The notes under the pieces: generated by a model
The model's input: the letters and a program-made list of their open reading frames with translations, nothing else
Databases searched by the model: none
What the model was told of the DNA's origin: nothing
IMG/VR virus record: IMGVR_UViG_3300046008_001858
Reading direction: 5' to 3' (one strand)
Source: an uncultured virus (IMG/VR IMGVR_UViG_3300046008_001858)
Taxonomy: Duplodnaviria > Heunggongvirae > Uroviricota > Caudoviricetes
Length of the DNA stretch: 20,000 bases
Translations under genes and position numbers: made by a program
Shown: piece after piece, positions 3,412-20,000 of the stretch
Layout of the letters: every line of letters begins with the position of its first letter
Numbering within the stretch: the stretch's first letter is position 1

Positions 3412-4497
3412 ATGAAAAAAGTACTATTATTAAATTTAATTTCTATAAATTTAATTTTTGGATCTGATACATTTATTAATCCATTACCTACTTCTGTTAA
3501 GTCTATAGATAATGGTGGAACTTTACAGGCTATAGATGCCTATAAAGATGGCATTGGAGCTGAATTAATGGATAAACCAGGTGTAGCTACAGATAATAGT
3601 GCATTTAACACTCTTTCTTTAAAATATGGTGAGGCAGCCAAGACAAATAATACAACAATAGTTGATCAAGTTATTAATGGAACTGGTTCAGCTGCAGATA
3701 AAATTATTGCTGGTAAATTAACATTAAATGGATCAGCATGTAATGACAGTAATGCTGCAACAACTGGTGAAACATGGTTAAATGGATCATGTCAAGGTGG
3801 AACAAATACAAATGGTAATCCTTGTAACGACGGAAATTCGCAAACTATTAATGATATTTACACCAATGGTATTTGTGCAGGAGCAATTCCATTATCATGT
3901 AATGAAATAAAAATCGCATTACCATCTTCAATTACAGGAAACTATACAATTGATCCAGATGGTTCAGGTGGTAATAGTCCATTTGTAGCTTCTTGTGATA
4001 TGACTACAAATGGCGGTGGATGGACTTTAGTTTTTTATTCAAATAGTGATAATGTTTCAAGAGCGACAATTTCTAGTGGAGATTGGAATAATGGGCCAGC
4101 AATTAATTTTTCTCGTTTATGGTCAATGAGAAATATAAAAAATAATGGGGTTTATGAATTTTATGTAAAAGATAGTTCTATAATAGGAAGAGATATTTGG
4201 TTTACGCAAACCAATTCTTATATCTCTAATCCAATTGGAAATAATTTCTTACAATTGGGAGGAAATTTATATTATTCTAGTCAAACAGATGGAACAACAT
4301 GGCAAGGACTATCAACTGGTAATTATGGAAATACAGCATTTCAAGCAAGTTGTACATTAGCTATGGCGTCAGAAGGTCATTCTTGGACATATTGTTTACA
4401 AGATCAATTAACAGGTAGCTATAATACTGGACCTTGGTTTTATAATGGTGGATATGACGCAGGCTCACAACAATGGGTTCAAGTTTGGCAAAAATAG
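3412..4497 (+). CDS. Secreted modular protein, family copy 1: conserved N-domain + 2 Cys repeats + fibrinogen-like C-domain
   Basis: Signal-peptide-like N-terminus. N-domain shared with 15507-16670 and 19707-end. SCNEIK...GNYTIDPDG...CDMTTNGGGWTLV is the fibrinogen-related (CDxxxxGGGW) signature. Confidence 0.85.
   Translation: MKKVLLLNLISINLIFGSDTFINPLPTSVKSIDNGGTLQAIDAYKDGIGAELMDKPGVATDNSAFNTLSLKYGEAAKTNNTTIVDQVINGTGSAADKIIAGKLTLNGSACNDSNAATTGETWLNGSCQGGTNTNGNPCNDGNSQTINDIYTNGICAGAIPLSCNEIKIALPSSITGNYTIDPDGSGGNSPFVASCDMTTNGGGWTLVFYSNSDNVSRATISSGDWNNGPAINFSRLWSMRNIKNNGVYEFYVKDSSIIGRDIWFTQTNSYISNPIGNNFLQLGGNLYYSSQTDGTTWQGLSTGNYGNTAFQASCTLAMASEGHSWTYCLQDQLTGSYNTGPWFYNGGYDAGSQQWVQVWQK
3727..3891 (+). 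repeat. Two in-frame Cys-pair repeats (NGxxCND..T.....NGxC.G)
   Basis: NGSACNDSNAATTGETWLNGSCQGG and NGNPCNDGNSQTINDIYTNGICAGAIP. Confidence 0.85.
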
Positions 4498-4576
4498 TAT
4501 TTTTTTATTTAAAAATACTATAACAAAATAATACTTTTCATTTTATTGAATTGTAATTTTAACAAAAGGATTTATT

Positions 4577-4792
4577 ATGAGTGAATTAGACACTTTAAAT
4601 AAAGAAGTCATGGAAAGAATTGAGTTACTAGCAGATTCTTATTGTTTATTACTTAAACAAAAACAAAAAGAAGAAGCAGTTAAAATGTCTGAAATTATTA
4701 AGTTTTTTTCAGATTTATATAAATGCGCAGATAAAAACAATAAAGAAGAATTGCAATCAATTTTAAATGAATTAATTGCAAATGAAAGCTAA
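4577..4792 (+). CDS. Hypothetical helical protein (71 aa)
   Basis: AAAGGA RBS, open frame, followed by a hairpin. Confidence 0.75.
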   Translation: MSELDTLNKEVMERIELLADSYCLLLKQKQKEEAVKMSEIIKFFSDLYKCADKNNKEELQSILNELIANES

Positions 4793-4793
4793 C

Positions 4794-4813
4794 GTCAGAC
4801 ATTTTTGTCTGAC
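4794..4813 (+). terminator. Hairpin GTCAGACA-TTTT-TGTCTGAC
   Basis: Perfect 8-bp inverted repeat immediately after the stop codon. Confidence 0.6.
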
Positions 4814-4841
4814 TAAAATTCTTATAGAATATAAACTTATT

Positions 4842-4862
4842 TTAAGAATAATTAAATATAAT
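4842..4862 (+). promoter_or_regulatory. Putative sigma70-type promoter for the ncRNA locus
   Basis: TTAAG-N10-TATAAT, the same pattern seen upstream of several genes in the window, with no credible ORF downstream. Confidence 0.5.
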
Positions 4863-4977
4863 TCGATTGAGTTGATCATCTCGTTTAAAATGATATCCTT
4901 TGTAAAGCCTACTAAAAGTTTAGTTAGGTCGATAATATAGATTAAGGATCGGAAAACTGTTCGGTCGAGGATTCTAT

Positions 4978-5152
4978 TATATAGTGGCGAAAGATAGACG
5001 CAAATTAATAATTGATAGTGAATTAACACAAGTCTGTGTAAAGTTGTAGTTCCTGTGTGGGTAATGCTAAATCATAGACATACTACCAAAATTGGTAGTA
5101 AAAACTTTTATTAATTCCTACAATTTATAGGTGGTAGGCCTATAGCTATATT
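4978..5152 (+). ncRNA. tRNA-like RNA 1 with oversized anticodon-arm insert
   Basis: Acceptor ATATAG/CTATAT; D-arm TG-GCG-AAAGATAGA-CGC; 9-bp stem AATTAATAA(5003-5011)/TTATTAATT(5108-5116) enclosing ~96 nt with internal hairpins; T-like arm ATAGG-TGGTAGG-CCTAT. Confidence 0.6.
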
Positions 5153-5241
5153 AATTAAATTAATATCTGGTTCGATTCCAGTTGGTGGAAGTAACTTCGT
5201 GCGTACTCAAATGCTATTCCATGGTGGAAAATTTTTTTAAT

Positions 5242-5427
5242 AATGAAGTGGCGGAATATAGACGCTAATCAGGATAGGTGCAGAGTTTGAGTTGTACAAC
5301 ACAAAATAACTCGTTTCAATCGTGGCAAGGGGATGTACACCTGGCAATGTCAAAAAGAGCACTTTTCATGCAACGAAAGTTGATCAAGAATTTTATTCGA
5401 AGATGGTGAAAGTCCCATGACTTCATA
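5242..5427 (+). ncRNA. tRNA-like RNA 2 with oversized anticodon-arm insert
   Basis: Acceptor ATGAAG(5243-5248)/CTTCAT(5421-5426); tRNA-Leu-like D-arm TG-GCG-GAATATAGA-CGC; ~110-nt structured insert; T-like arm ATGG-TGAAAGTC-CCAT. Confidence 0.6.
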
Positions 5428-5670
5428 AGTTTACAAAAGTAAACCGTTTTGAACATTACGAAAAATGTCTATCGAGGTGCTAGAACCAGCGTAGCAAACT
5501 AGAAGTAATTTAACACTGAATAAATCGGGTTTAAATTATAGTTTACTGTCTTAACAGGGATTGTGGCTTGAGAGCAAGGTAGCCGAGAAAACTTCTTGCA
5601 GAGTAGATTATCAATCATCTACCAGAGTTGAATAACTCAATAAAATTCCTACAGACGTGTAGGTAATTTT
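5428..5670 (+). ncRNA. Putative multi-hairpin structured RNA of unknown class
   Basis: Successive stems GTTTAC/GTAAAC, ACATT/AATGT, TAATTTAA/TTAAATTA, GGCT/AGCC, GTAGAT/ATCTAC, GAGTT/AACTC and CCTACA/TGTAGG. GC is higher than in flanking intergenic DNA and the track shows no ORF here. Confidence 0.45.
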
Positions 5671-5754
5671 ACCTTTATTATGTTGATTAAATATTTTTAT
5701 TAAGATAAATATCTAACTAATTTTTAAGTTACTACTCATTTATATTCTCTTTAA

Positions 5755-6225
5755 TTACTTAATTTGTATTCCTAATGATTTAAATATAAAAGTTATTATT
5801 AATCCAATAATAATCGCTATAATAATAGATATTATTATTCCAACAATAACGCTACCAGCAGATTGCTTCATATCATTATTTTCGATTGTTTTAAAAAATT
5901 TACCTTTAATTTTAATATTATTATCATTTAAATAAATTATTGTGTATTGATAAAGTCCAAATCCTAATCCCATAACTAAAAATTGTGTCATTTTAAAATC
6001 GACATAAGTCATTATTGACATAATAATTAGTATTGAAATAAATCCTATAGCATAAGTAATATTTCTTTTTTTGTAATCTCCCATAGATTCATAATTTTTT
6101 GCACAAAAGTACATTCCAGCCGCTAAACCACCAATAACTGTTCCGAACACTATTTGTGTTGGAGAAAAGAACTTACCTTTAGGGGTTATATTATTTTCAG
6201 ATACTTCTTTAATATTATTTACCAT
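5755..6225 (-). CDS. Hypothetical integral membrane protein (~4 TM)
   Basis: GAGGA RBS; several hydrophobic segments; motif FFSPTQIVFGTVIGGLAAG...N...G. Confidence 0.8.
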   Translation of the reverse strand: MVNNIKEVSENNITPKGKFFSPTQIVFGTVIGGLAAGMYFCAKNYESMGDYKKRNITYAIGFISILIIMSIMTYVDFKMTQFLVMGLGFGLYQYTIIYLNDNNIKIKGKFFKTIENNDMKQSAGSVIVGIIISIIIAIIIGLIITFIFKSLGIQIK

Positions 6226-6474
6226 CTAATTTTATTCCTCCATATTGAATTATATTATGATCGACAGCAAATAAACTTGCTATTAATAATCTTTTTGTCA
6301 TTATTTTCTCCTGTTTTATGGCCGTTTTACGGTTATAGTATTTATCGAAGTTGAAGTATATCTTATTTTTTTAATAAAAATATATTTTGCATGGTTATTA
6401 TATTTATTTATACAATGATAAGTCAAATTTTAACATTTTTTATAATTATTGCGGATATTTTTACGGCCATTAAA

Positions 6475-6490
6475 TCCCAGAATATTGGGA
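6475..6490 (-). terminator. Hairpin TCCCA-N6-TGGGA, probable terminator of the 6538-7014 gene
   Basis: Short GC-containing inverted repeat with A/T-rich flanks downstream of the minus-strand gene. Confidence 0.4.
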
Positions 6491-6537
6491 CTTAAATGAA
6501 TATATGTACTTAAATATTGCTGATATTTTTGCTGATA

Positions 6538-7014
6538 TTAAATAACTGTAAGATGCTGATATTTTGATTTCAATCTTAAATACTCGTCATATTCTTTTTT
6601 TTCAGATTCATTTTCTAATTTATTGAAAACCATTCTATTTAAATATAGTTTTATACTTTGATTTCCACTTAAATAAGTAAAAGAATTCTTAACAGAATTC
6701 AAAATATAAGGATAAACTTTATTTGATTCTTTTCTATGTAAATCATTATAAGATTCGAAATTTAAATCAATATCTTTAATATAAGATATCAATCCTTCCT
6801 TTTGATTATATTTATTAAAAACTCTTTCTTTAATAGAACTAATTAATGATTCTAAACATTCTTTAATAATATTTTCATCTGCATATTCATTTAAAATAAT
6901 ACTTTTTGAATAAGACTCAAAAGATTCTTCAAAATAACCATCTTCATTTCTTAAATCAAAATCTCCATCTGTTTCAATTTGAATATTAATTTCTAATGCT
7001 TTTTCTACTTTCAT
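6538..7014 (-). CDS. Phage-type hypothetical protein
   Basis: AAGGGG RBS favours the ATG at 7014. Upstream TTAAG-N11-TATAAT (7082-7061). C-terminal EKKEYDEYLRLKSKY resembles ends common in phage hypothetical proteins. Confidence 0.75.
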   Translation of the reverse strand: MKVEKALEINIQIETDGDFDLRNEDGYFEESFESYSKSIILNEYADENIIKECLESLISSIKERVFNKYNQKEGLISYIKDIDLNFESYNDLHRKESNKVYPYILNSVKNSFTYLSGNQSIKLYLNRMVFNKLENESEKKEYDEYLRLKSKYQHLTVI

Positions 7015-7142
7015 GATCAAACCCCTTATTTGGTACTATTTATTTGTAATAATTAATATAATTATAATCAAATTAAACTTAAAGTTACCAATGAACTGAT
7101 ATTTTTTGTTATAATTATATCAATATAACAGGAGAATTAAAA

Positions 7143-7517
7143 ATGAAAAAAATATTATTATTAAGTATTCTATACTCTTTATCTTTTGCATCGTTTAAAG
7201 AAATATCATACAGAGAAGCAACAAAAAATACTGATAAAGCAATTTGGATGCTAGATAGACATAAATGTGTGACTTCTGTTGAGCATGTAAAAGAAGCACT
7301 TGGAAATGAAGATATAAAAACAAAAGAAGCTATCAAAATTATTTTTGAGGATTATTATGCAGCAGGAAAACTTTATGATTCTCAAACATCCTTTTTTATA
7401 GATAAAAATAAAAATAAAATAAAAGTTATCAGTGATTCTGGAGTACATTTATTTTTTAAAAATAAAAAAGATTGTAAAAAATTAGAAAAACCATTAAAAA
7501 ATAGTATTTTTTTATAA
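7143..7517 (+). CDS. Secreted hypothetical protein
   Basis: AGGAG RBS; Sec signal MKKILLLSILYSLSFA. Confidence 0.8.
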   Translation: MKKILLLSILYSLSFASFKEISYREATKNTDKAIWMLDRHKCVTSVEHVKEALGNEDIKTKEAIKIIFEDYYAAGKLYDSQTSFFIDKNKNKIKVISDSGVHLFFKNKKDCKKLEKPLKNSIFL

Positions 7518-7559
7518 AATAATCATATTACTTAGTAATTTTTATACTAAGGATTTATA

Positions 7560-7736
7560 ATGACACGTCTAAACAATGTTCCTACAGCGGATTATATGGG
7601 CTTTTACTTTACTGACGGTACTAAGTATTACTTTGGTGGTACATCTAATATCGAAGGTGAAGTTGCAGAACAAGACATGGAAATCATGTGGCGCAATTTA
7701 CGTGCAGCATGGTATCTCGAATCAAAACGGAAGTAA
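7560..7736 (+). CDS. Small hypothetical protein (58 aa, MTRLNNVPTADYMGFYFTDG...WYLESKRK), not in ORF track
   Basis: AAGGA RBS, ATG at 7560, protein-like composition; the stop lies in the loop of the terminator hairpin. Confidence 0.75.
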   Translation: MTRLNNVPTADYMGFYFTDGTKYYFGGTSNIEGEVAEQDMEIMWRNLRAAWYLESKRK

Positions 7737-7745
7737 TTCCGTTTT
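7724..7745. terminator. Bidirectional intrinsic terminator AAAACGGAA-GTAA-TTCCGTTTT
   Basis: Perfect 9-bp inverted repeat between two convergent small genes. Confidence 0.7.
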
Positions 7746-7749
7746 ACTT

Positions 7750-7848
7750 TTAGTAAAATGATTTTAATTTATCTATTATTGGCAATAAAGTTATTATTAC
7801 TAAAATAATCGTAATGAATATTCTTATTGTAATTTCTTTTTTTGACAT
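7750..7848 (-). CDS. 32-aa single-TM micropeptide (MSKKEITIRIFITIILVIITLLPIIDKLKSFY)
   Basis: Strong AAGGAGA RBS shortly before the ATG; basic N-terminus followed by a hydrophobic helix. Confidence 0.6.
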   Translation of the reverse strand: MSKKEITIRIFITIILVIITLLPIIDKLKSFY

Positions 7849-8025
7849 AAATGTCTCCTTTAATAAAAATATTAGATTAAATATTTAAATATAACTATAA
7901 CATAATTAATTATTTCAATTTTATACATATATAAAAGCTTTAAGCTTAATATAATAAAGTATAAGATATGATTTAAAATCTAAAAAATAAAAAGCGCTTT
8001 AAAATAGCAGCTAGAGGACAAAAAA

Positions 8026-10047
8026 ATGCAAAAAAATATTTTAATTTCTTCATTAAGTTTGATTACATTCTTAACGATTGAAAGCAATGCTTCCAACTTA
8101 TCTGTGTCTTCAAATGAAGATCAAAATATTTCACTTGAATTAAGTGCTGCTCCAAAACCTGGCGTCGATTATACAAGAACATCTCAATTTCTTCAAACAA
8201 GATACACAACATCTCAATTATCACAAATTAATGCACAAGTAGCTCATAATAATGGCTTTACAGGTGGTAATCTATCTAAAACATTATCATATACAAAAGT
8301 TGCTTCTGATACATCTAATAGAAATTTGCAGACAGTTGTTGCGGTATTAGATAGTGGAATCAATGCAACACACGATGATTTAAAATCAGTAGGTAAAATT
8401 GAAGCATTTAAAGATTTTACAAGTACACAAACAGTTGCTTATGATAATTTTGGACATGGAACAATGGTTTCTTCTATTATTGCTGGAGATCGTCAAAGTG
8501 CTACAGATCCTTTTTATGGTATTGCTTATGGAGCTAATTTAATTGAAGGCCAAATCATAACATCTAGTGGAGGAACTAACAATATTCTTTTACAACAAGG
8601 AATTGATTGGGTTGTACAACAAAAAACATTGTTAGATAAACCTAATGTTAAACAAGTTGTTTCTTTAAATCTTAGCTTAGGAACTAATGATTCTAGTTTT
8701 ATTAATACTAGTTTTAAAAATTCATTATTAAATGCATTAAATTCAGGATTATCAATTGTTTCAGCTGCTGGTAATGAAGGACTTGATTGTAAGGATACAG
8801 GAACAGGAATTAATGGTAAATGTAGTTTCCCAGCTGCAGCACCTTGGGTTAATTCTGCAGATACAGCTTCTTATTTAAATAAAAGCGGAGCTTGGGTTGT
8901 TGTTGGTTCTGTTGATAGAACAAATAAAATATCAGCATTTAGTAATAGAGCTGGAGTATCAAAAAGTAATTACATTGTAGCTCCTGGTGAAAATTTAATT
9001 GGTGACTCTAATACTGTTAATAATGGATATGTAGTTGGTTCAGGAACATCTTTTGCTGCACCACTTGTCTCAGGTGCTTTAGCTTTATTCGCTCAAAAAT
9101 GGCCATATTTACAAGGAAGACAACATGCACAAATCATGTTTGATACAGCAACAGATCTTGGTACACCAGGAATTGACGATATATATGGTAACGGATTGTT
9201 AAATTTAACAAAAGCTTTTAATCCTGTTGGAGTTATTGCAATTCCTACTGGTACAAAAAGTGTATTTTCAAAATCAATACAAACAACAAACAATACATCT
9301 TTAAAAACAAGTACAGCAATATCTTTAAAATCATTAACTTTGGATAATAGTATTGTAGTAGATTCTTATAATAGAGATTTTTCCGTAAGTTTAAATAATG
9401 CGGTATCAACAACAGGTTCAAGTCCTGTTGATTTTAAAAATTTCATGACATTTAATTATGGTGATATGCTTTTTGGTGTTGATCAAAGTCGAGATATGTT
9501 AATGGTTGGATATAAATTCAATGATAGCTCAAAACTAAAAGTTTCTTATGACAATACGTTTTTAGGAACTCAATCAGATGGAGCCTTATCTATTGGTAGT
9601 GCAAATAGTATTTATGTAAATTATGATAAAAACGTAGTTAGTTATAATGATTTCGTACTAAATGTTAATGGAACATATGCATATGCTGAAGCAAATACAG
9701 CAAATAATAGTGTTATTACAGATTTATCATCTGCTCAAGCTATTGGTGGTGAAATTACAGCTATGTATAAAGATTTTGGATTAGGATATGAAATTCCATT
9801 AAGAACTATTAATGGAAGTGCTTCTTTAAATACAGCAACTTCTGTTGATTTAGATGGCAATCTTATTTATACTCAAGATAAAACAAGCTTAAATCCAGAT
9901 TCATTTCAACAAGTTTATTCAGTGTTTTATCAAAAACAAATGCAAAATTTATATTTCCAAACAAAACTAAGTAGAACAAATGACGCTTATGGTATTAATA
10001 ATCTTGCGAGTAATGATATTAAAGTAATGTTAAATTATTTTTACTAA
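8026..10047 (+). CDS. S8 subtilisin-family serine protease with putative C-terminal beta-barrel (Sec-exported)
   Basis: Catalytic Asp (VAVLDSG), His (FGHGTMV), oxyanion Asn (SAAGNE) and Ser (GTSFAAP). TATDLG..GIDD.YG.GLL motif. Ends in LNYFY. Confidence 0.92.
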   Translation: MQKNILISSLSLITFLTIESNASNLSVSSNEDQNISLELSAAPKPGVDYTRTSQFLQTRYTTSQLSQINAQVAHNNGFTGGNLSKTLSYTKVASDTSNRNLQTVVAVLDSGINATHDDLKSVGKIEAFKDFTSTQTVAYDNFGHGTMVSSIIAGDRQSATDPFYGIAYGANLIEGQIITSSGGTNNILLQQGIDWVVQQKTLLDKPNVKQVVSLNLSLGTNDSSFINTSFKNSLLNALNSGLSIVSAAGNEGLDCKDTGTGINGKCSFPAAAPWVNSADTASYLNKSGAWVVVGSVDRTNKISAFSNRAGVSKSNYIVAPGENLIGDSNTVNNGYVVGSGTSFAAPLVSGALALFAQKWPYLQGRQHAQIMFDTATDLGTPGIDDIYGNGLLNLTKAFNPVGVIAIPTGTKSVFSKSIQTTNNTSLKTSTAISLKSLTLDNSIVVDSYNRDFSVSLNNAVSTTGSSPVDFKNFMTFNYGDMLFGVDQSRDMLMVGYKFNDSSKLKVSYDNTFLGTQSDGALSIGSANSIYVNYDKNVVSYNDFVLNVNGTYAYAEANTANNSVITDLSSAQAIGGEITAMYKDFGLGYEIPLRTINGSASLNTATSVDLDGNLIYTQDKTSLNPDSFQQVYSVFYQKQMQNLYFQTKLSRTNDAYGINNLASNDIKVMLNYFY

Positions 10048-10118
10048 AAGTTCTTTTTTAATTTTATTTTAAATTTATTCTGATAAAATAACATAATTAA
10101 AATAAAAAGAGAGAATCC

Positions 10119-12203
10119 ATGAAACAAAAAATTCTATTATCGTCATTAAGCTTAATTGCATTTTCATTAGTTGGTTGTAGTGGTGGAGGTGGAGGTGGCC
10201 CTTCAGTTCCAACACAAGTAATCATTCCTCCACCAACAGATACTAATACAAGTACTGAAACAAATACTACAACACCTCCTGTAGTTCCTCCTCCATCTGG
10301 TCCTGGCGTTGATTATACAGATCCGTCACAATTTGTTCAAACAACAAACATTCCTTTACAATTATCACAAATTAATGCTCAAGTAGCTTATAATAATGGT
10401 TTTACTGGTGGTAATCTATCTGAATCTACAACATATACAACTGTTGCTTCTGATACGTCAAATAGAAATCTACAAACAATTATTGCGGTATTAGATAGTG
10501 GAATCAATGCAAATCATGAAGATTTAAATTCAACAGGTAAAATAGAAGCTTTTAAAGATTTTACAGCAACAAATAGTGTAACTCCTTATGATAATTTTGG
10601 ACATGGAACAATGGTTTCTTCTATTTTAGCAGGAACAAGACAAGATGTTAATGATACATATTACGGTGTAGCATACGGTGCACACTTAATTGAAGGTCAA
10701 ATTATTACCTCTGCTGGAACAACTGATAATATTATATTGAAGAATGCGATTGACTGGGCAGTTCAACAAAAATTAGCACTAGATGTAGCAAATGTTAAGC
10801 AAGTTGTTGCATTAAATTTAAGTCTAGGAACTACTGATTCAAGTTTTGTAAATACAACATTTAAAAATTCATTATTAGCAGCATTGAATACAGGAATGTC
10901 AATTGTATCAGCGGCAGGAAATGAAGGTCTTGATTGTTTGGATACAGGCACTGGAATTAATGGAAAATGTAGTTTCCCAGCTGCCGCACCTTGGGTTAAT
11001 CCTGCTGATACAGCATCTTATTTAACAAATAATGGTGGATGGGTTGTTGTTGGATCTGTTGATTCAAATAATAATATTTCTGCATTTAGTAATAAAGCAG
11101 GTGTAACAAAAAGTAATTATATTGTTGCTCCTGGTGAAAATCTTATAGGAGCTGCTTATAATCAAAATGACGGCTATAGAGTCGGATCAGGAACATCTTT
11201 TGCAGCACCATTAGTATCTGGAGCTTTAGCTTTATTTACTCAAAAATGGCCTCACTTATCAGGAAGACAACATTCTCAAATTATGTTTGATACTGCAACT
11301 GATCTTGGTGCTCCAGGAATTGACGATGTATATGGAAATGGGTTATTAGACTTAAGTAAAGCATTTAATCCAGTTGGAACAGTTGCTATTCCTACTGGAT
11401 TAACAAATGTTTTTAATGGTCAATCAACACAAAATGTTGTTAATACATCTTTTAAAACAAGTTCAAGTATTCTTTCATTAAAATCTTTAACTTATTTGAA
11501 CAATACAATTGGAGTTGACTCTTATAATAGAGATTTCACAATGAACTTAACAAATTCAATTTCTACTACTGGTACAAGTCCTGTAGATTTTAAAAATTTC
11601 ATGACCTTTAATTATGGAGATGTTCTTTTTGGTGTAGATTCAGCTAGAAATATGCCTTTAGTAGGATATAAATTTAATGATAACTCAAAAATAAAAGTTT
11701 CTTATGATAATACATTCCTCGGGACTCAATCAGAAGGTGCTTTGTCAATTGGTAATTCTAATACAATTTATGTTAATTATGAAAAAGTTTTAGTTAATGA
11801 AGAAAATTTTAAATTGAATTTTAGTGGAAATTATGCTTATGGTAAAGCAAACACAGCTGCAAATAGTATTATTACTGATATTGATTCTGTACAGGCTATC
11901 GGTGGTGAAGTAACAGCTATGTATAAAGATTTTGGTGTTGGCTATGAAATTCCTTTGCGTGCTGTAAGTGGTTCTATGTCTTTTAATACACCTACAAGTA
12001 TTGATAATAGTGGAAATATTATTTACACTCAAAATACTTCTAGTTTGAATCCAGATACATTTCAACAAGTATATTCTATGTTTTATCAAAAACAAATGAA
12101 TGATTTTTATTTACAAACAAAATTAAGCCATACAAACGATGCTTATGGTATTAATAATCTTATTAGTAATGATTTAAAAGTTAGCTTAAATTATTTCTAT
12201 TAA
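10119..12203 (+). CDS. S8 subtilisin-family serine protease, lipoprotein paralogue
   Basis: Lipobox LVGC followed by a poly-Gly and Pro/Thr linker. Same D/H/N/S motifs and co-linear with 8026-10047. Ends in LNYFY. Confidence 0.92.
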   Translation: MKQKILLSSLSLIAFSLVGCSGGGGGGPSVPTQVIIPPPTDTNTSTETNTTTPPVVPPPSGPGVDYTDPSQFVQTTNIPLQLSQINAQVAYNNGFTGGNLSESTTYTTVASDTSNRNLQTIIAVLDSGINANHEDLNSTGKIEAFKDFTATNSVTPYDNFGHGTMVSSILAGTRQDVNDTYYGVAYGAHLIEGQIITSAGTTDNIILKNAIDWAVQQKLALDVANVKQVVALNLSLGTTDSSFVNTTFKNSLLAALNTGMSIVSAAGNEGLDCLDTGTGINGKCSFPAAAPWVNPADTASYLTNNGGWVVVGSVDSNNNISAFSNKAGVTKSNYIVAPGENLIGAAYNQNDGYRVGSGTSFAAPLVSGALALFTQKWPHLSGRQHSQIMFDTATDLGAPGIDDVYGNGLLDLSKAFNPVGTVAIPTGLTNVFNGQSTQNVVNTSFKTSSSILSLKSLTYLNNTIGVDSYNRDFTMNLTNSISTTGTSPVDFKNFMTFNYGDVLFGVDSARNMPLVGYKFNDNSKIKVSYDNTFLGTQSEGALSIGNSNTIYVNYEKVLVNEENFKLNFSGNYAYGKANTAANSIITDIDSVQAIGGEVTAMYKDFGVGYEIPLRAVSGSMSFNTPTSIDNSGNIIYTQNTSSLNPDTFQQVYSMFYQKQMNDFYLQTKLSHTNDAYGINNLISNDLKVSLNYFY

Positions 12204-13286: not shown

Positions 13287-13345
13287 GTGTCTTTAAGACT
13301 TTACTTGCTAATTTTATAGCTAAAAGTCCACTTAGTGGCGAAAGG
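13287..13345 (+). promoter_or_regulatory. Repeated structured leader, copy A
   Basis: GTGTC-N4-AGACT...GCTA-N6-TAGC...CCAC-TTA-GTGG-CGAAAGG, downstream of TATAAT at 13253. Confidence 0.6.
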
Positions 13346-13353
13346 ATTTTGAA

Positions 13354-13641: not shown

Positions 13642-13645
13642 AAAT

Positions 13646-13663
13646 CCACAAAGTGGTGAAAGG
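13646..13663 (+). promoter_or_regulatory. Repeated structured leader, copy B (last hairpin only)
   Basis: CCAC-AAA-GTGG-TGAAAGG before the ATG at 13670. Confidence 0.6.
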
Positions 13664-13669
13664 TTTATT

Positions 13670-14122: not shown

Positions 14123-14123
14123 A

Positions 14124-14531
14124 ATGCGAATTTTAGGTTTAGATAAAAGAAAAACATCTGCTAAGTTTTATGGGAATCATCCGACAAATCCAACAGAAAT
14201 TTTTATTAATATTAATTATTCTAGAAATGGAATTGAAGGATTTGTTGAATTAACTGAAAGATATGTTTATCAAATGAAATTGAAATATGATAGACCTGTT
14301 ATGTATAAGGGGTTAAATCTTCATTGTAAAGACTTTGATCGTCATTCCACACAAGATATCGTATTAACAGAATCAGTAATTGCTGATATGCTTAAAATGC
14401 TTCTAACTGGCGATGTTATTATTGAGGATGGTTGTTATGTTGTAAATTTCCTATTAAATAAATGTGGAGATAGATATTCAATGCAACTTTTAACTCATAG
14501 AGAAGTTCAAGAGTTGATAAGAAATTCTTAG
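14124..14531 (+). CDS. Hypothetical protein
   Basis: AAGGAG RBS supports the ATG at 14124 rather than the TTG at 14106. Confidence 0.8.
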   Translation: MRILGLDKRKTSAKFYGNHPTNPTEIFININYSRNGIEGFVELTERYVYQMKLKYDRPVMYKGLNLHCKDFDRHSTQDIVLTESVIADMLKMLLTGDVIIEDGCYVVNFLLNKCGDRYSMQLLTHREVQELIRNS

Positions 14532-14586
14532 TGTCGTAAAGACTAAAATAAGCTAATTAGCTTTAAAACCACATTGTGGTGAAAGG
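14531..14586 (+). promoter_or_regulatory. Repeated structured leader, copy C
   Basis: GTGTC-GTAA-AGACT...AAGCTAATTAGCTT...CCAC-ATT-GTGG-TGAAAGG. Confidence 0.6.
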
Positions 14587-14593
14587 GTTTATT

Positions 14594-15022
14594 ATGGAAT
14601 ATTCAATTAAATATCCAAAAATCATATATACTGATCAATTTACAGTTGAAGGTAATTATGAAGAATATATTGAAGGTTATAATAAAAATTGTGTAGGTGA
14701 AAATATTAGAAAAGGAACTTATGAAATTCTTATTGATAAAAATGATATTAACACTATTTTAAGTGAATATAAATTTTTCATGTATTGCTCTGATCAAAAA
14801 TATATTAATTATGTTTCTGATTTAACTTTTTATAAATATTTTATTAAATTTTTCGAAAATATTGATTATAGATATATTTCAAATCAAGTTTTTTACTATT
14901 ATAATGAATATGGAATAAAAGGTGTTCTTGAAATTTCTTACACAAAAGAAGAAGATCAAGAATTTAAATTAAAGATGGATGCTTTAAATTTAATTATTCA
15001 AGCACAAAAAATGTCTTTTTGA
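14594..15022 (+). CDS. Tyr-rich hypothetical protein
   Basis: GAAAGG RBS supports the ATG at 14594. Confidence 0.8.
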   Translation: MEYSIKYPKIIYTDQFTVEGNYEEYIEGYNKNCVGENIRKGTYEILIDKNDINTILSEYKFFMYCSDQKYINYVSDLTFYKYFIKFFENIDYRYISNQVFYYYNEYGIKGVLEISYTKEEDQEFKLKMDALNLIIQAQKMSF

Positions 15023-15040
15023 ACCCTTTGGGTTCTTTTT
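15021..15040 (+). terminator. Rho-independent terminator
   Basis: GAACCC-TTT-GGGTTC followed by a T tract. Confidence 0.8.
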
Positions 15041-15077
15041 ATTGTAAAATAATAAAAAAGATCAGAGGTTTATTTTT

Positions 15078-15488
15078 ATGAATAAAAAAATTATATTTAT
15101 ACTATTAATTTTTGCTTCCACATGTTTCGCAAAAGCATATTATAAACCTACTTATAATTATCATAAAAACTCAATAACAAAAGTTGAGCCAATAGGACAG
15201 AAAAAATATCAACCAAATAATACTGATTTAAAAAATATAAACAATCAACAAATAAGACCTGTAATAAATAATTACAATACTGGATTTGTAAGATCAATGG
15301 TAGGGACTATGGCAGGAATGTATTTATTTAATTCATTAGCTAATGAAAACGAATTAAATAATTTAAGTTATGAAAACTCAAATGAAAGTAGTTTAGGAAT
15401 TATTTTTGGATATATATTATCATTTTTAATAATATTGTTATTCATCTATATTTTTTATAGAATATTAAAATTATTCTTTAAAATATAG
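15078..15488 (+). CDS. Exported/membrane hypothetical protein
   Basis: Signal peptide, GFVRSMVGTMAGMYLF small-residue helix and a C-terminal TM segment. Confidence 0.75.
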   Translation: MNKKIIFILLIFASTCFAKAYYKPTYNYHKNSITKVEPIGQKKYQPNNTDLKNINNQQIRPVINNYNTGFVRSMVGTMAGMYLFNSLANENELNNLSYENSNESSLGIIFGYILSFLIILLFIYIFYRILKLFFKI

Positions 15489-15506
15489 ATATTACTTGTT
15501 ATTATT

Positions 15507-16670
15507 TTAATAACAAACTTTTGATTTTGTTATGTATGCTGGTTTATATCCAGTACTTGTAGATTGCATATATTTTAATTTTATACCGCCTGTACAAATA
15601 GGACTGTCAGCTCTTATTTTTACAGCATAATCCTTATTATCAAAAATAATTGTTTGATCATAAGTGGTATTCTGATTGTGGAAACTAGTTCCTCCAGGAA
15701 GAATAGTTGTAACTCCATTAAGACCACTAATATCTGTTAATTTAGGATTATCATTTAAATATACACTACCAGGAAGTGTTTTTAAATTAGCCAAACCATT
15801 AAGATTTGTTAATTGATACATCCTTACTAAAAAAATACTACTATAATTAACACCTGTAACATTAATTAAATTATCAATATTAGTTAAAGTAAATTGATTA
15901 GTAATCCATAATAATCTGATTGGTCCAACTAAACTTAAATAGGTTGAAGGTAATGATTGTCCTAATATTTTTCCAGAAGTGTTATCCCCACTACATTGTA
16001 TTATCAATCCTGTACTATAAGTAAATCCTCCATTACAAGTATTATTTGGTGTTGAAATAACAGGTATTGTTCCAGCGCAAACATTATTTGTATAAACGTC
16101 ATTTATTGTTTCTGTATTACCATCGTCACAAGAAGTTCCATCTACAAAAGATGTTCCTACATAAGTTACTAAACCACCTTGGCATACGTCATTTAACCAT
16201 GTTTCACCTGTTGTTGCAGGATTTCCATCGTCACATGTAATACCATTTCTATAAACATTATCTATTCCACCTTGACATGTATTGTTTAACCATGTTTCTC
16301 CGTGTGTTGAAGGATCACCATCGTCACATAATGTTCCATCGGCATGAAGTAAAGTTGAGGCTAAGATTAAATCTGTTGAAGTTGGATTTGAATTCCCATT
16401 TAATACTTGATTGACTATTGTTGTATTATTCGCTTTAGCAACTTCTCCATACTTAAGAGTAAGAGTATTCATAGCTGTATTATTTACAGAATCAATACTT
16501 AAATTACTTAATACATAAGCCCCAATTCCATCTTGATATGCATCTATTGCTGACATAGAGGAACCACCATTGTCTATTGCTCTATTAGTAATTGATAATG
16601 GGTTTATGTATACAGTTCCAGCTAAAACCACCGAAGAACAGAATATACTTAATTTAAATATTTTTTTCAT
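15507..16670 (-). CDS. Secreted modular protein, family copy 2: conserved N-domain + 3 Cys repeats + LRR/receptor-L-domain-like C-domain
   Basis: Signal peptide ending VVLA; shared INPL...IDNGG...AIDAY.DGIGA...NTL.LKYGE.AK.NN domain; LTNIDNL/LTNLNGLANL/LTDISGLNGV repeats. Confidence 0.85.
   Translation of the reverse strand: MKKIFKLSIFCSSVVLAGTVYINPLSITNRAIDNGGSSMSAIDAYQDGIGAYVLSNLSIDSVNNTAMNTLTLKYGEVAKANNTTIVNQVLNGNSNPTSTDLILASTLLHADGTLCDDGDPSTHGETWLNNTCQGGIDNVYRNGITCDDGNPATTGETWLNDVCQGGLVTYVGTSFVDGTSCDDGNTETINDVYTNNVCAGTIPVISTPNNTCNGGFTYSTGLIIQCSGDNTSGKILGQSLPSTYLSLVGPIRLLWITNQFTLTNIDNLINVTGVNYSSIFLVRMYQLTNLNGLANLKTLPGSVYLNDNPKLTDISGLNGVTTILPGGTSFHNQNTTYDQTIIFDNKDYAVKIRADSPICTGGIKLKYMQSTSTGYKPAYITKSKVCY
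16062..16340 (-). repeat. Three in-frame Cys-pair repeats (xGxxCDDGN/D..T.....N..C.G)
   Basis: DGTLCDDGDPSTHGETWLNNTCQGG; NGITCDDGNPATTGETWLNDVCQGG; DGTSCDDGNTETINDVYTNNVCAGTIP. CCATCGTCACA recurs three times on the + strand. Confidence 0.9.
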
Positions 16671-16735
16671 TTAATGCCTCTTATATATTATATAGTAGAC
16701 ATTATATCTTCTTTTGATTAACTTTATTTTTTATA

Positions 16736-16864
16736 TCAATTAAATTGTTCATTTCTTTTACGATTAATTTTTGCAGTTATTTCCCCATGTTTTTTAAACT
16801 CTGAATAATTATTTTCCATTGTTCCTGAAAAAGCGTTTAAAAGTCCAAATAAAAATGCTTTCAT
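16736..16864 (-). CDS. Possible 42-aa protein (MKAFLFGLLN...RNEQFN)
   Basis: ATGA start/stop overlap with the SLOG gene and an AAGGAG upstream. Confidence 0.45.
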   Translation of the reverse strand: MKAFLFGLLNAFSGTMENNYSEFKKHGEITAKINRKRNEQFN

Positions 16865-17397
16865 AAAATCAAATCTCCTTTAAATAAATTTCCTTCATAT
16901 TTATTCTCAATTATAGCTTTTTTAATGCAATCTGACGTTCCTATTGAATCAAATAAATGATAAGAATAAATTTCATCTGAATTATCAACAATAAATTGAT
17001 TTCTTTTGTTAAAAACTAATAGAGAATCTTCATCTTTTTCAACTTCAATAATTTTTATTAAGTTTTTATAACTTAAAATTAAATTATAATTCAATGCTTG
17101 AGCTTTTCCGAATTTTGAATGAACTTTTAAATTTTTATGCCACTCTACACTTCCTGGAACACAAATGATTAAATCTAAATTTAATTTCATAGCTACTAAT
17201 GCAAAGATTTCATCTACACCTCTAGCCATACCGCAACAACAAGTTACTTGCCCTTTAGATTTTAAGAATTTTTCTAAATCTGCAAAAATTTTTTTAAAAA
17301 CGTCCATATCATATATATTTGGATCATATTTTCTGTTAAAAGGAAATTCTATATTGGCATGACCAGTTATTCCTATAACAGTCTTCTTTTTAATCAT
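16861..17397 (-). CDS. SLOG-superfamily (YspA/DUF1273-like) nucleotide-binding protein
   Basis: IGITGH...GMARGVDEIFA...RNQFIVDNSD...GTSDCIKKA motifs. The likely start (MIKKK, 17397) overlaps the upstream stop. Confidence 0.8.
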   Translation of the reverse strand: MIKKKTVIGITGHANIEFPFNRKYDPNIYDMDVFKKIFADLEKFLKSKGQVTCCCGMARGVDEIFALVAMKLNLDLIICVPGSVEWHKNLKVHSKFGKAQALNYNLILSYKNLIKIIEVEKDEDSLLVFNKRNQFIVDNSDEIYSYHLFDSIGTSDCIKKAIIENKYEGNLFKGDLIL

Positions 17398-17695
17398 CTT
17401 CTTCATCTTCTTCTTCGTCACACAATTCTTCAAAATAAACATCTGCATAATCTTTAACTGTATCTATAGCTGAACATTTTAAATCTTCGAGTGTATCTAA
17501 ATCAACTGAATCTAATTCAATTGTATTTAATCCTGAATCTAATTGAATTTTATATCTTTTTAAAAAATCTGCTTTTGACTTGGATGCTAAAAGATAATTT
17601 AGATTATGATTGTAAAGATTAAAAGATGAATTTTTATTATCAATATCATCCATAACTGCCTCTAAATTTTTAAGTGATTTTGTTATTTTATTCAT
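17390..17695 (-). CDS. Hypothetical protein with acidic C-terminal tail
   Basis: AAGGA RBS; ends EELCDEEEDEEDD. Confidence 0.75.
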   Translation of the reverse strand: MNKITKSLKNLEAVMDDIDNKNSSFNLYNHNLNYLLASKSKADFLKRYKIQLDSGLNTIELDSVDLDTLEDLKCSAIDTVKDYADVYFEELCDEEEDEEDD

Positions 17696-17713
17696 AATTT
17701 AATTCCTTTTATT

Positions 17714-18133
17714 TTAGTTTATTTTTTTTAAAAATTTATTATACTCTTTCAATATTTTTTCTACGCTTATTTTTTCATTAAAGATTACAATCTTATTTAA
17801 ATTAAAAAAAATATTTTTATTTGCAAGAACTTGCTTACAGATAAAATCAATATGTATTGAATGCAAGTATAAATTTTGATCTTTATATCTTGTAAGAGGA
17901 GATAAATTAATATAGTCCTCATTATTATCATTTTGTAAAACACTATATTCATTTCCACTTACAGAAATTTTTTTACCAAATGAATCAATAAATATAAATG
18001 TATATTCATTGAAAGTCATTATTTTTCTTCCTCTAAAATTACAAACATAATTTATATTAAAATTACCATGTATTTTAGATGGGGATTTTTTAATATTAGA
18101 ATGAATATGTTGATCAAAATGTATTGAATTCAT
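17714..18133 (-). CDS. Hypothetical protein, paralogue of 18183-18569
   Basis: GNFNINYVCNFRGRKI...SIHIDFIC motif shared with its neighbour; GGGGG RBS. Confidence 0.75.
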   Translation of the reverse strand: MNSIHFDQHIHSNIKKSPSKIHGNFNINYVCNFRGRKIMTFNEYTFIFIDSFGKKISVSGNEYSVLQNDNNEDYINLSPLTRYKDQNLYLHSIHIDFICKQVLANKNIFFNLNKIVIFNEKISVEKILKEYNKFLKKIN

Positions 18134-18182
18134 AATAATACCCCCAATTTTTTATCTTATTTTATAATAAATCATCTTAAAA

Positions 18183-18569
18183 TTACATTAAAATATTTTT
18201 TAAATACCTTAAATGTTTTGCTTTAAATGAAGTTAAACTTATGGGTTTATTAATAATTAGTAATTTATTAATACGATAATGCTCTTCATTGTTATCGACA
18301 AAATAAACACACACAATATCCATTGTTATAGATATTAATTTAAATGACATATCATTTATTTCATTGAAAAAATTAAAGTCAAGATAGTGCAATCCAGATT
18401 TTGATTTAACAATATTTTTATTAGTTATTGGAATTGATAAAATTTCATTCTTAGAATTTTTAAATGTTAATAAGTATTTATTTATATTTACTATTTTTCT
18501 ATCTCTAAAATCACAAATATAAGAAATATTTAAATTTCCACTAAGAATTTGTACTTTTGTTGAAAACAT
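18183..18569 (-). CDS. Hypothetical protein, paralogue of 17714-18133
   Basis: GNLNISYICDFRDRKI...SITMDIVC; AAGGA RBS. Confidence 0.75.
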   Translation of the reverse strand: MFSTKVQILSGNLNISYICDFRDRKIVNINKYLLTFKNSKNEILSIPITNKNIVKSKSGLHYLDFNFFNEINDMSFKLISITMDIVCVYFVDNNEEHYRINKLLIINKPISLTSFKAKHLRYLKNILM

Positions 18570-18758
18570 TTTTAAATCCTTTATAATAAATATATTTATT
18601 ATATCAATTTTATTATTAAATGATTATTAGATTTATTTTTATATATAAAAAACTTCTTTTTAAGTTATAAAAACATATAATATATCTATAACAATAAGAT
18701 CCATCTAATGGAAATTTAACTGGTTTTTACTTTTGTAAAAACAAAAAAGGTGTTTAAA

Positions 18759-19415
18759 ATGTCTGTAGAATCTGTTAAAAACGATATTCAATCTGTATTG
18801 AATCGTGTCAATAGAATTGAACTTGCTCATGGTGGTTGTAATTGTTATCATGGAGATAATAAATTTAAAACTAATTCAACTATTAGTTCAGTTGAAAAAG
18901 ATAATCACGGTGGTTATTATCTTAATATGTATAATGACAATTTAAAAATTGGCGGAGAAGATGACGATGACGAAAACGATTCAACTCTAGAAGATAGTTT
19001 ATTTTCAGCCATAAGAAAAGAAGTTGTAAGTGTCAATAAAGATATTGAAATTATTGAAATTTATGGTCAAGAAAAAGGTTATTTTTCTATAAGACTTGCA
19101 TTAAAAAGTGAGGCTTCAAAAAATAAATCATTGAAAAGTATTAATGAAAAAATTCTTAAATTAGAATTAAAATTAAGAGAATTCAATAAAGAAGTTGCTA
19201 TTAAAATTAGCCAACAAAAATCTAAAAAGAAGACATGTACACATTGTGATAGTAATGTGAATATTGATTTTATAAAAGATTCATATAATGCGAGATCTCA
19301 TTTGTGTCCAGTATGTCATAAACCGATGTACACGGATACGGAATTGAAGAAGCTTAAATCAATAACTGATAAAATCAGTGAATTGAAAAGTGAAATACAA
19401 AAAATTATAGCATAA
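18759..19415 (+). CDS. Zinc-ribbon-containing hypothetical protein
   Basis: CTHC...CPVC flanked by coiled-coil-like segments. AAAGG RBS favours the ATG at 18759. TTAAG-N11-TATAAT at 18660-18681. Confidence 0.8.
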   Translation: MSVESVKNDIQSVLNRVNRIELAHGGCNCYHGDNKFKTNSTISSVEKDNHGGYYLNMYNDNLKIGGEDDDDENDSTLEDSLFSAIRKEVVSVNKDIEIIEIYGQEKGYFSIRLALKSEASKNKSLKSINEKILKLELKLREFNKEVAIKISQQKSKKKTCTHCDSNVNIDFIKDSYNARSHLCPVCHKPMYTDTELKKLKSITDKISELKSEIQKIIA

Positions 19416-19425
19416 AGGGCTAAAC

Positions 19426-19626
19426 ATGTTTTTTAAAAAAGAGGAACAAAGTTTTGAAGATATAATGGCATCTATTGAGAGCTATCAAAAATATTTCAAA
19501 ACTCAAACAGAGCTTCATAAATCAAGAATGGTTTCTTTGGAAATTAAAAAAAAGGTAGCAGAAGATTTTGCTCCTATTTTAATGGATTTTAAGAAATTGA
19601 ATTTTAAATTAAAGCATATGCTATAA
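19426..19626 (+). CDS. Small hypothetical protein (66 aa)
   Basis: AAAGGG RBS directly after the upstream stop. Confidence 0.65.
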   Translation: MFFKKEEQSFEDIMASIESYQKYFKTQTELHKSRMVSLEIKKKVAEDFAPILMDFKKLNFKLKHML

Positions 19627-19706
19627 AATATCTGGCAATTTTGTCAGATACTTTCTTTTTAAGATATAATTTTATATAAAATATATTTCTCAGAGGCAAA
19701 TTTAAA

Positions 19707-20000
19707 ATGAAAAAACAATTAATATTACTTAGCTTTGTATCATCTATGTTATTAGCTGATACATTTATAAATCCATTACCAAATTCAGTTAAGGCTACTG
19801 ACAATGGTGGAAGTAAATCAGCTATAGATGCATATAAAGATGGTATAGGTGCTGAACTTATGGATAAGCCAGGAATTGCAACAGATAATTCAGCCTTTAA
19901 TACTTTAACTCTTAAATATGGTGAAGCAGCTAAAGCAAATAATGTAAGTGTAGTTGATCAAGTACTTCATGGAAATTCAAATCCTACTTCAACTGATTTA
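19707..20000 (+). CDS. Secreted modular protein, family copy 3 (truncated by window end; not in ORF track)
   Basis: MKKQLILLSFVSSMLLA-DTFINPLPNSVKATDNGGSKSAIDAYKDGIGAELMDKPGIATDNSAFNTLTLKYGEAAKANNVSVVDQVLHGNSNPTSTDL; clearly homologous to copies 1 and 2. Confidence 0.9.
   Translation, partial: MKKQLILLSFVSSMLLADTFINPLPNSVKATDNGGSKSAIDAYKDGIGAELMDKPGIATDNSAFNTLTLKYGEAAKANNVSVVDQVLHGNSNPTSTDL

Follow-up and report, generated by a model that had tools for sequence, protein, structure and literature searches.

A dispersed family of exported proteins with a constant N-terminal domain, a Cys-pair stalk and swapped tips in uncultured freshwater DNA

The window analysed here is the whole stretch of 20,000 nt, given as one strand, of the uncultured virus record IMGVR_UViG_3300046008_001858. 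It holds three copies of a gene for a putatively exported protein, and the copies are alike at their beginnings and differ towards their ends (Table 1). Judged by sequence comparison, the constant N-terminal domain of these proteins (hereafter the N-domain) defines a rare, uncatalogued family, in which a stalk of Cys-pair repeats of variable length leads to many unrelated tips. Based on sequence and on analogy with described systems, we hypothesize that the family is a producer-anchored or secreted modular adhesin or lectin repertoire with the N-domain as its common carrier, a reading to which we give about an even chance.

The N-domain family

A first-pass annotation of the window had pointed to three genes (3412+, 16670- and 19707+) with a common signal peptide and N-domain. 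All three open reading frames (ORFs) are present, the motif quoted for the domain is found in them, and an alignment of the three copies has 42 invariant columns, with a common signal-peptide-like start followed by a domain that reaches to about residue 105. Over the whole aligned length, copy 2 is 39% and copy 3 69% identical to copy 1. The 98 amino acids (aa) of copy 3 coincide exactly with the first 98 of P0057, a protein of 289 aa with one Cys-pair repeat. The same annotation had described the domain as unrecognised and about 75 aa long; it is indeed shared and uncatalogued, with an extent here of about 85 aa. The two and three Cys-pair repeats assigned to copies 1 and 2 lie at the positions listed in Table 1. 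The sharp end of homology after the junction TINDxYTNxxCAGxIP is seen as well, since beyond it the alignment of copies 1 and 2 falls apart, with gaps and only isolated identical residues.

At the DNA level, the N-domains of the window copies are 74–79% identical to each other, and the regions upstream of the copies are not conserved. Many unrelated genes also lie within the span 3412–20000. Self-comparison of the window DNA revealed no long near-identical direct or inverted repeats, no recombination-site arrays and no invertible segments; the inverted matches between copies are paralogous coding regions only, with 74–86% identity. The window copies are old, diverged paralogues and do not form a switching cassette system. 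"Polymorphic", as they had been called, is not supported in the sense of active switching, as no shufflon-like or cassette repeats flank the genes.

Outside the window, four independent metagenome loci (L001–L004) match the window copies over the N-domain in BLASTP, with E values of 1e-12 to 1e-22. A profile built from seven sequences, the three window copies and these four loci, was used to search 1.84 billion cluster representatives and retrieved 189 at E ≤ 1e-3, 147 of these at E ≤ 1e-10. The match begins within the first 55 residues in 150 of the 150 proteins listed, which are 59–669 aa long. Our own hidden Markov model (HMM) scan of the collected proteins returned 170 positives, and 103 of these have the domain from residue 1 on. 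The word-indexed search that started from copy 1 found 89 proteins, 48 with the N-domain and 41 with the fibrinogen-type tip alone. The first-pass picture is supported in this respect: the genes belong to a genuine family of scattered members that keep one N-terminal domain and vary in the length of the stalk and in the tip.

A signal-peptide-like start, MKK followed by a hydrophobic run, is present in every family member; signal peptides, like disulfides below, were read by eye. The leader consists of MKK and about 14 hydrophobic residues, after which comes the polar stretch DTFINPLP. This mature start is strongly conserved inside the close subfamily; L002 and L003, two distant members, lack a conserved mature N-terminus.

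No Pfam family matched the N-domain of the window proteins, either at E ≤ 0.01 with whole proteins or at E ≤ 10 with residues 1–107. It has no match in NCBIfam or PHROGs, and matches of the profile to PDB sequences fall on the tip only. In an AlphaFold2 (AF2) model of full-length copy 1, made with 48 sequences, the predicted local distance difference test (pLDDT) is 73–93 in blocks across residues 21–180. Modelled alone, with 94 sequences, the N-domain is small and mostly helical, with a mean pLDDT of 69. Fold searches with this stand-alone model recognised no convincing neighbour, the best scores being a VIA Z of 2.8 among 48,161 chains and Foldseek E values of 4 against PDB and 2.1 against BFVD. 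By eye, the N-domain holds two similar loop–helix segments, xDNGG...AIDAY and xDNSA..NTL..KY, and its alignment has no evident heptad or coiled-coil pattern. A prediction of a three-copy N-domain complex scored 0.00 with the fold of the partners uncertain, and counts neither way. In the literature on bacterial fibrinogen-like families, we found no description of the N-domain. The suggestion that the domain may be undescribed stands across Pfam, NCBIfam, PHROGs, PDB sequences, and PDB and BFVD folds, none of which gave a recognisable match to it.

The stalk varies widely in length. Counted by regular expression in 170 proteins, the repeats are absent from 68, single in 59 and double in 22, and number up to 12. 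In the AF2 model of copy 1, the repeats are predicted as beta-hairpins with a pLDDT of 84–87. Each Cys pair would form a disulfide within its repeat, and such paired cysteines would fit an oxidising extracytoplasmic site. The ESM Atlas gave no feature match for the repeat; its structural rows lean toward the Cys-rich repeat proteins DUF4215, Dicty_CTDC and MopE at template-modelling (TM) scores of at most 0.41, which is insufficient for naming the repeat from them.

The fibrinogen-like tip reported for copy 1 was recovered. Residues 162–207 match the NCBIfam model NF040941 (fibrinogen-like YCDxxxxGGGW, GGGWT_bact) over positions 1–46 of 46, at 64.2 bits with a cut-off of 30 (E 8.1e-18), and the motif SCDMTTNGGGWT is visible in the translation. 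With the Pfam model PF00147 (Fibrinogen_C), copy 1 reaches 19.3 bits, under the cut-off of 22, at model positions 14–47 only; the paralogue P0038 reaches 66.8 bits over positions 3–195. The family profile matches PDB entries of intelectin/XEEL and of tenascin fibrinogen domains at about 1e-5, and fibrinogen beta at 1e-4 over up to about 140 columns; the XEEL/intelectin alignment centres on the motif CDMTTxGGGWT. The AF2 model of the copy 1 tip is poor (pLDDT about 30–40). In fold searches, the full-length copy 1 model found matches only at the start of its fibrinogen-type tip (aa 159–209), with Z 5.8 for the procollagen C-propeptide and Z 4.7 for fibrinogen.

For copy 2, the first-pass annotation had named a region like leucine-rich repeats (LRR) or receptor L-domains. 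There is no direct Pfam match of the tip at E ≤ 0.01, and the likeness is transitive, through BLASTP to tips of other members. The tip finds P0190 at 2e-10, P0071 at 2e-8 and P0207 at 5e-6, and its BLASTP relatives also include P0101 and P0047. P0190 is a Recep_L_domain protein (30.6 bits, cut-off 21.8, E 4e-7), P0207 an LRR_5 protein (35 bits, cut-off 27.7, E 1.5e-8) and P0071 an LRR_4 protein under the cut-off. The tip of copy 3, as read from P0057, is weakly SPRY-like by sequence: in a phmmer search of PDB, 10 of 10 matches are ASH2L, Bre2 or TRIM9 entries, at weak E values of 0.025–0.18, which we take to be SPRY-type domains. P0057 has no Pfam match at E ≤ 5.

A Pfam scan of 165 family proteins, 47 of them at E ≤ 0.01 and 118 at E ≤ 1e-4, catalogued at least 11 tip types, so that C-terminal diversity is wide. 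Fibrinogen_C/COLFI is present in 35 proteins, DUF285 in 14, Gly_rich_2 in four, Laminin_G_3 in three, and F5/8 type C, LRR_4 or LRR_5, and Recep_L_domain in two each. ILEI, Calx-beta, VWA_2 (below cut-off) and Lcl_C (weak) occur in one protein each, and 99 tips are without a family. Going by these profile matches, most of the recognisable tips have folds that bind carbohydrates or proteins, namely DUF285 and other LRR types, fibrinogen-related/COLFI, ConA-like, discoidin, ILEI, Calx-beta and the C-type-lectin-like Lcl_C. All-versus-all BLAST of 155 tips yielded 41 single-linkage clusters, a rough grouping whose largest cluster merges fibrinogen-type and DUF285 tips.

The nearest named tip-only relatives of the copy 1 tip are P0061 and P0050, which carry the labels Candidatus Gracilibacteria or "uncultured bacterium (gcode 4)". 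P0061, a protein from a Candidatus Gracilibacteria metagenome-assembled genome (MAG), joins the fibrinogen-like domain to a type IV pilin N_methyl motif; the same tip therefore occurs on at least two different carriers in different lineages.

Table 1. Positions of the three family genes and their parts in the window
Feature	Position	Strand	Description
Copy 1	3412..4497	+	361 aa; signal peptide, N-domain, two Cys-pair repeats, fibrinogen-like (GGGWT) tip; identical to P0001; from ORF and alignment
Copy 1 signal peptide	3412..3462	+	About aa 1-17; MKK and hydrophobic run, then conserved DTF/INPL mature start; putative cleavage site placed by eye
Copy 1 constant N-domain	3463..3735	+	aa 18-108; mostly helical in the AF2 models; profile match to positions 1-107
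Copy 1 stalk	3739..3882	+	Two Cys-pair repeats, Cys110-127 and Cys138-155; ends in junction TINDIYTNGICAGAIP; beta-hairpins predicted, pLDDT 84-87
Copy 1 tip	3895..4494	+	aa 162-361; fibrinogen-related domain, bacterial GGGWT type; NF040941 E 8.1e-18
Copy 2	15507..16670	-	387 aa; signal peptide, N-domain, three Cys-pair repeats, LRR/L-domain-like tip
Copy 2 N-domain	16335..16616	-	aa 19-112; from alignments
Copy 2 stalk	16071..16328	-	Three Cys-pair repeats, Cys115-132, 146-163 and 181-198; DNA-level internal repeats D5, D6
Copy 2 tip	15510..16055	-	aa 206-387; LRR/receptor-L-domain-like by transitive BLASTP similarity
Copy 3	19707..20000	+	First 98 aa (signal peptide and N-domain), cut by window end; full-length protein is P0057

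Replicons, distribution and probable producer

Several paralogues with different tips appear to share replicons. Eleven matches of the copy 1 search, together with P0092, have the same reported longest contig, of 228,353 bp, and other reported longest contigs are shared by five matches (239,299 bp), three matches (159,320 bp) and three matches (69,184 bp). We infer that proteins sharing a contig size sit on the same contig, which would place about 12 paralogues on one 228-kb contig.

The family was not found in 185,579 GTDB species genomes, one per species, nor were relatives found in IMG/VR, in both cases by pattern scan and tblastn. The N-domain had no tblastn match in 72,556 PLSDB plasmids or in GenBank phages, the window had no megablast match in PLSDB or phages, and the N-domain profile had no match in 401 Campylobacterota genomes. 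These negatives mean that the family was not found in the sets searched and are no proof of absence. An association with virions, raised by the first-pass annotation, has no support: neither the phage nor the IMG/VR searches gave relatives, and the signal peptides of the proteins are Sec-type.

Two distant loci, L001 and L004, have usable flanks, and in each of them the family gene is embedded in a backbone like that of a conjugative plasmid. That of L004 comprises Rep3, TraG_N, two ArdC-type genes, ParA and a coupling-protein fragment; that of L001 comprises ParA, ArdC, DUF2958, type III restriction-modification, a TrwB/TraD-type coupling protein and an outer-membrane protein (OMP) beta-barrel gene, and this OMP_b-brl gene adjoins the family member. 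The two distant members, at L001 5514–6620 and L004 10001–10642, end differently, in one case with two Calx-beta domains and in the other with a short tip of unknown type. The two backbones are themselves related, with ArdC, a small ArdcN protein, ParA, an acidic protein of about 350 aa and a TraD-type coupling protein in similar order. Library scans revealed no transfer genes among the window proteins. Across the five loci (the window and L001–L004), no conserved transporter gene, and indeed no conserved neighbour at all, lies beside the family members.

Lake-water or freshwater metagenomes of three further studies include assembled contigs with stretches identical to the window, and the habitat is lake water. 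In one metatranscriptome library, contigs share 31% of the sampled words of 3300–4600. Short read joints, with sides of 20–29 letters, were set aside as artefacts of repeats or other organisms, and uncovered parts of the window were not interpreted.

The window has a G+C content of 26–27% and reads cleanly under translation table 11. The 24 stop codons counted are TAA in 19 cases, TAG in three and TGA in two. Because the nearest tip-only relatives are labelled Gracilibacteria or "gcode 4", the alternative codes 25 and 4 were considered; they were rejected, as long ORFs have no in-frame TGA and are unchanged under table 25. The closest named relative of an S8 subtilase gene of the window is in a Sulfuricurvum MAG, at 46% identity. 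Placement of the host by the GGDEF-EAL gene was rejected as too weak, with identity of only about 40% and relatives in many phyla. The producer would be a low-GC (about 27%), standard-code, probably diderm freshwater bacterium or its large mobile element; its diderm nature is judged from the OMP gene of L001 and from the S8 proteins, which have an aromatic C-terminus and weak matches to autotransporter peptidase models.

Other window genes and a tRNA-like RNA

Apart from the family, the named genes of the window encode a GGDEF-EAL protein, a Bles03-like protein and two S8 subtilases, and small ORFs without families fill much of the rest. The gene at 145–2091 (+) encodes a MASE6-GGDEF-EAL signalling protein (EAL 7e-70, GGDEF 7e-41) whose best relatives are about 40% identical and spread over many phyla. 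The 139-aa product of 2817–3236 (+) has a eukaryote-type Bles03 domain (PF08939, 1.2e-16) and a weak IF4E match, which is unusual for a bacterium or mobile element. At 8026–10047 and 10119–12203 (+) are tandem paralogous S8 subtilases, 70% identical to each other and visible as DNA repeats D1–D3. Both have a C-terminal region of about 270 aa that ends in the aromatic ...LNYFY, and the second has a Gly-rich, lipoprotein-like start; their matches to autotransporter peptidase models (EprS, fusolisin) are weak and far below the cut-offs. From 12.2 to 19.6 kb, the window is dense in small, often acidic ORFs without families, with a phrog_289-like protein at 16861–17448, which suggests that this region is mobile-element cargo. 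Two adjacent ORFs at 17714–18133 (-) and 18183–18569 (-), of 139 and 128 aa and both below the Pfam cut-offs, look like paralogues by eye, with N(I/L)N(I/Y)(I/V)C(D/N)FR(D/G)RKI in common close to the N-terminus.

The piece best covered in the RNA library is 4879–5773, with a 916-letter contig at a depth of 79.8 versus 2.8–7 for the other pieces listed, and with an adapter at 4879. It contains no ORF above 85 aa, no Rfam family and no call of a transfer RNA (tRNA) or transfer-messenger RNA (tmRNA), and it folds better than shuffled sequences on both strands (z -2.7 and -3.1). On its + strand are two tRNA-like units of 173 and 184 nt, at about 4978–5155 and 5243–5426. Each has a 7-bp acceptor-like closing stem and the motif U-GGCG(G/A)AAnAUAGACGC, followed by an insert that varies and, immediately 5′ of the second strand of the stem, by a T-arm-like hairpin. 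The 16-nt motif is present at a minimum of 122 IMG/VR loci, and the closing stem is found in 59 of 84 distinct motif instances versus 396 of 1,680 shuffled controls. With the Rfam tRNA model, one instance reaches 25.9 bits, under the cut-off of 29. Known RNAs occur in and around these elements: a genuine tRNA (43.7 bits) sits inside the closing stem at L108, a tmRNA precedes the element at L125, a skipping-rope RNA follows it at L155, and tRNAs lie 110–180 nt downstream at L085, L142 and L091. At L142, the motif also occurs in a neighbouring genuine tRNA, where the D-loop is longer. The units may belong to a phage-associated, so far undescribed family of expanded tRNA-like RNAs; at these IMG/VR loci the element sits in phage non-coding RNA islands.

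What the constant domain may do

We hypothesize that the N-domain would serve as a common carrier fixing all members to one element of the producer-cell surface, that the disulfide-stiffened stalk would space the tip away from this surface, and that the tip would bind glycans or proteins on another cell, be it prey, host, partner or mating recipient. With many tips on one carrier, the repertoire would therefore widen the range of surfaces to which the producer can attach. A role of the N-domain as carrier or anchor is suggested by systems built on the same plan.

By analogy, the closest described system in logic is that of the mosaic adhesive trimer (MAT) fibres of Bdellovibrio bacteriovorus, with Bd2133, Bd1334, Bd2439, Bd2734 and Bd2740 among those described (Caulton et al. 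2024, PMC10769870). All 21 MAT proteins have, right after the signal peptide, a conserved domain without a PDB homologue that is presumed to bind an element of the predator surface (PMC10769870). Among their swapped tips are C-type-lectin and TNF-like lectin folds, and "tip swapping" is named there as a mode of diversification (PMC10769870). The genes described here likewise form a multigene family of exported proteins, in which the signal peptide is followed by a constant domain, a stalk, and swapped, unrelated tips including lectin folds. The parts differ. The N-domain of MAT proteins is given as beta-rich with a length of about 130 aa, as opposed to about 85 aa and predicted helical here, a comparison made by description only; the MAT stalk is a long trimeric beta-helix in proteins of about 600–1,150 aa, whereas here there are 0–12 two-Cys hairpin repeats in proteins one third the size, of about 200–670 aa. 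The 150 profile matches listed are all shorter than the MAT constructs described in the paper (PMC10769870), in a library without protein names. Unlike the MAT proteins as presented there, the family has no S74 chaperone-protease domain, and MAT fibres are trimers.

Modular type IV pilins follow a similar design. In Streptococcus sanguinis, PilB carries a vWA module and PilC a ConA-like lectin module (Raynaud et al. 2021, PMC8179133). Here, too, a constant N-terminal carrier bears grafted modules, and the PF13385 ConA-like lectin, vWA and He_PIG are also found as tips. N_methyl (PF07963 / IPR012902) had no match in the three window copies or in the 47 and 118 scanned members; no class III signal peptide was detected either, and the consensus sequences of the family have neither feature. 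The N-domain was rejected as a type IV pilin on these grounds: it has no N_methyl motif, the leader is short and Sec-type, and the carrier is predicted to be soluble and helical with no pilin fold. The family is thus best seen as analogous to, and not homologous with, MAT fibres and modular pilins: the logic would be the same and the parts unrelated.

Other known arrangements resemble portions of the family. NF040941 and the eukaryotic fibrinogen-related lectins cover only the tip of some members, with the N-domain and the Cys-pair stalk outside them. Dockerins are helical modules of about 70 aa with a duplicated loop–helix that carry functional domains to one scaffold in cellulosomes. The N-domain is likewise a small constant module carrying many domains, with its two loop–helix segments seen by eye; however, residues 1–107 have no Pfam dockerin match at E ≤ 10, dockerins are absent from the fold-search rows (for a model whose pLDDT is only 69), and, unlike in cellulosomes, no cohesin-like scaffold gene was seen.

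Several findings weigh against a carrier of adhesins or lectins. The N-domain model is only moderately confident, which makes the lack of a fold match a weak argument. The first-pass annotation had the N-domain dock onto, or polymerise with, a common scaffold, but no partner or oligomer of the domain came to light, and no route across the outer membrane is evident in the window. Evidence of transcription is limited, as it consists of the assembled contigs of one RNA library, in which DNA carry-over is possible. The 46% identity of the S8 gene to the Sulfuricurvum protein is too weak for placing the host. Most fibrinogen-type Pfam matches span the first 45 or so residues of the domain, several of them under the cut-off, and "lectin-like" is an extrapolation from the nameable minority of tips, given that 99 of 165 are without a family.

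The same proteins could also be soluble multivalent lectins, or agglutinins, in which the N-domain would oligomerise identical tips for avidity, cross-linking cells or matrix with no anchoring to the producer. In ficolins and collectins, an N-terminal segment and a collagen stalk oligomerise. Like ficolins, the family places a fibrinogen-related domain terminally, after an N-terminal module and a stalk; this order also mirrors tenascins and intelectins, whose fibrinogen domains are among the PDB matches of the tip. The N-domain is small and predicted helical, as many oligomerisation modules are, and MAT fibres are trimers (PMC10769870). However, we see no sign of self-association of the N-domain and no heptad or coiled-coil pattern in its alignment, 68 of 170 members have no stalk by the regular expression, and the N-domain also occurs with LRR and DUF285 tips, which are normally monomeric. 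We consider agglutinins unlikely. Alternatively, the N-domain could have no role outside the cell and be a targeting or secretion tag, read by a dedicated export or sorting machine for passage of the outer membrane, in the way that two-partner secretion uses the TPS domain and curli subunits use their N-terminal 22 residues. Three features favour a tag: in every member listed, the domain comes first, immediately behind the signal peptide; the mature start DTFINPLP is highly conserved in the close subfamily; and the cargo is very diverse, including Gly-rich and unknown domains. Since the five loci have no conserved transporter gene beside the members, the mature N-terminus is not conserved in L002 and L003, and Pfam gives no match to a known secretion domain, we regard a tag as quite unlikely. 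Passengers of autotransporters or of two-partner secretion were discarded, as Pfam scans of members gave no PF03797 barrel or TPS domain and the proteins end with their tips.

The replicons bring up another explanation, namely, accessory adhesins of conjugative elements that would bind recipient surfaces for mating-pair formation or recipient choice, with the N-domain docked on the transfer apparatus. Conjugative adhesins such as the tips of the R64 shufflon/PilV thin pilus and the F-type TraN tip have a constant N-part and variable ends. The present proteins share with R64 PilV and TraN a constant N-part with alternative C-terminal ends, and two members lie on conjugative-type backbones, which are the only two distant loci with usable flanks (L001 and L004). 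The absence of the family from the 185,579 species genomes and the 401 Campylobacterota genomes also fits poorly binned mobile elements. Unlike in R64 PilV/TraN, there is no arrangement of recombinase and recombination sites, the alternatives are separate full genes, and there is no pilin or TraN homology. Moreover, the loci are only two, with the gene among cargo or leading-region genes (ArdC, restriction-modification) and outside any tra operon; the window has no transfer genes; about 12 paralogues on one contig exceed the need of a mating adhesin; and the 72,556 PLSDB plasmids hold no relatives. We consider mating adhesins very unlikely.

A further proposal, which we rate as improbable, is that the N-domain is a new docking module of mobile elements: (mega)plasmids of freshwater diderms would carry swappable "lectin cartridges" plugged into one element-encoded surface structure, which would be the mating apparatus or the neighbouring S8 outer-membrane proteases. 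If so, the element would decide which cells, whether recipients, prey or eukaryotic hosts, its carrier sticks to, and this would be a plasmid-borne, dockerin-like display of adhesins with animal-type domains (fibrinogen-related, SPRY-like, ILEI, L-domain and discoidin).

Returning to the modular adhesin or lectin repertoire, the design of a constant anchor with swapped tips is used by phages, predatory bacteria and pili to widen the surfaces they recognise. Here it would exist in a compact form, an uncatalogued domain of about 85 aa with a minimal disulfide stalk, known solely from uncultured freshwater material and in part carried by conjugative-type elements. Their small size and modular build make the proteins unusually tractable for structures and glycan arrays. 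The gathering of animal-type domains (fibrinogen-related, COLFI, ILEI, L-domain, discoidin and possibly SPRY) on one bacterial carrier bears on the history of these folds outside animals. If a partner of the N-domain is found, the family would provide a new surface-display module and a handle on cell–cell recognition in an uncultured lineage.

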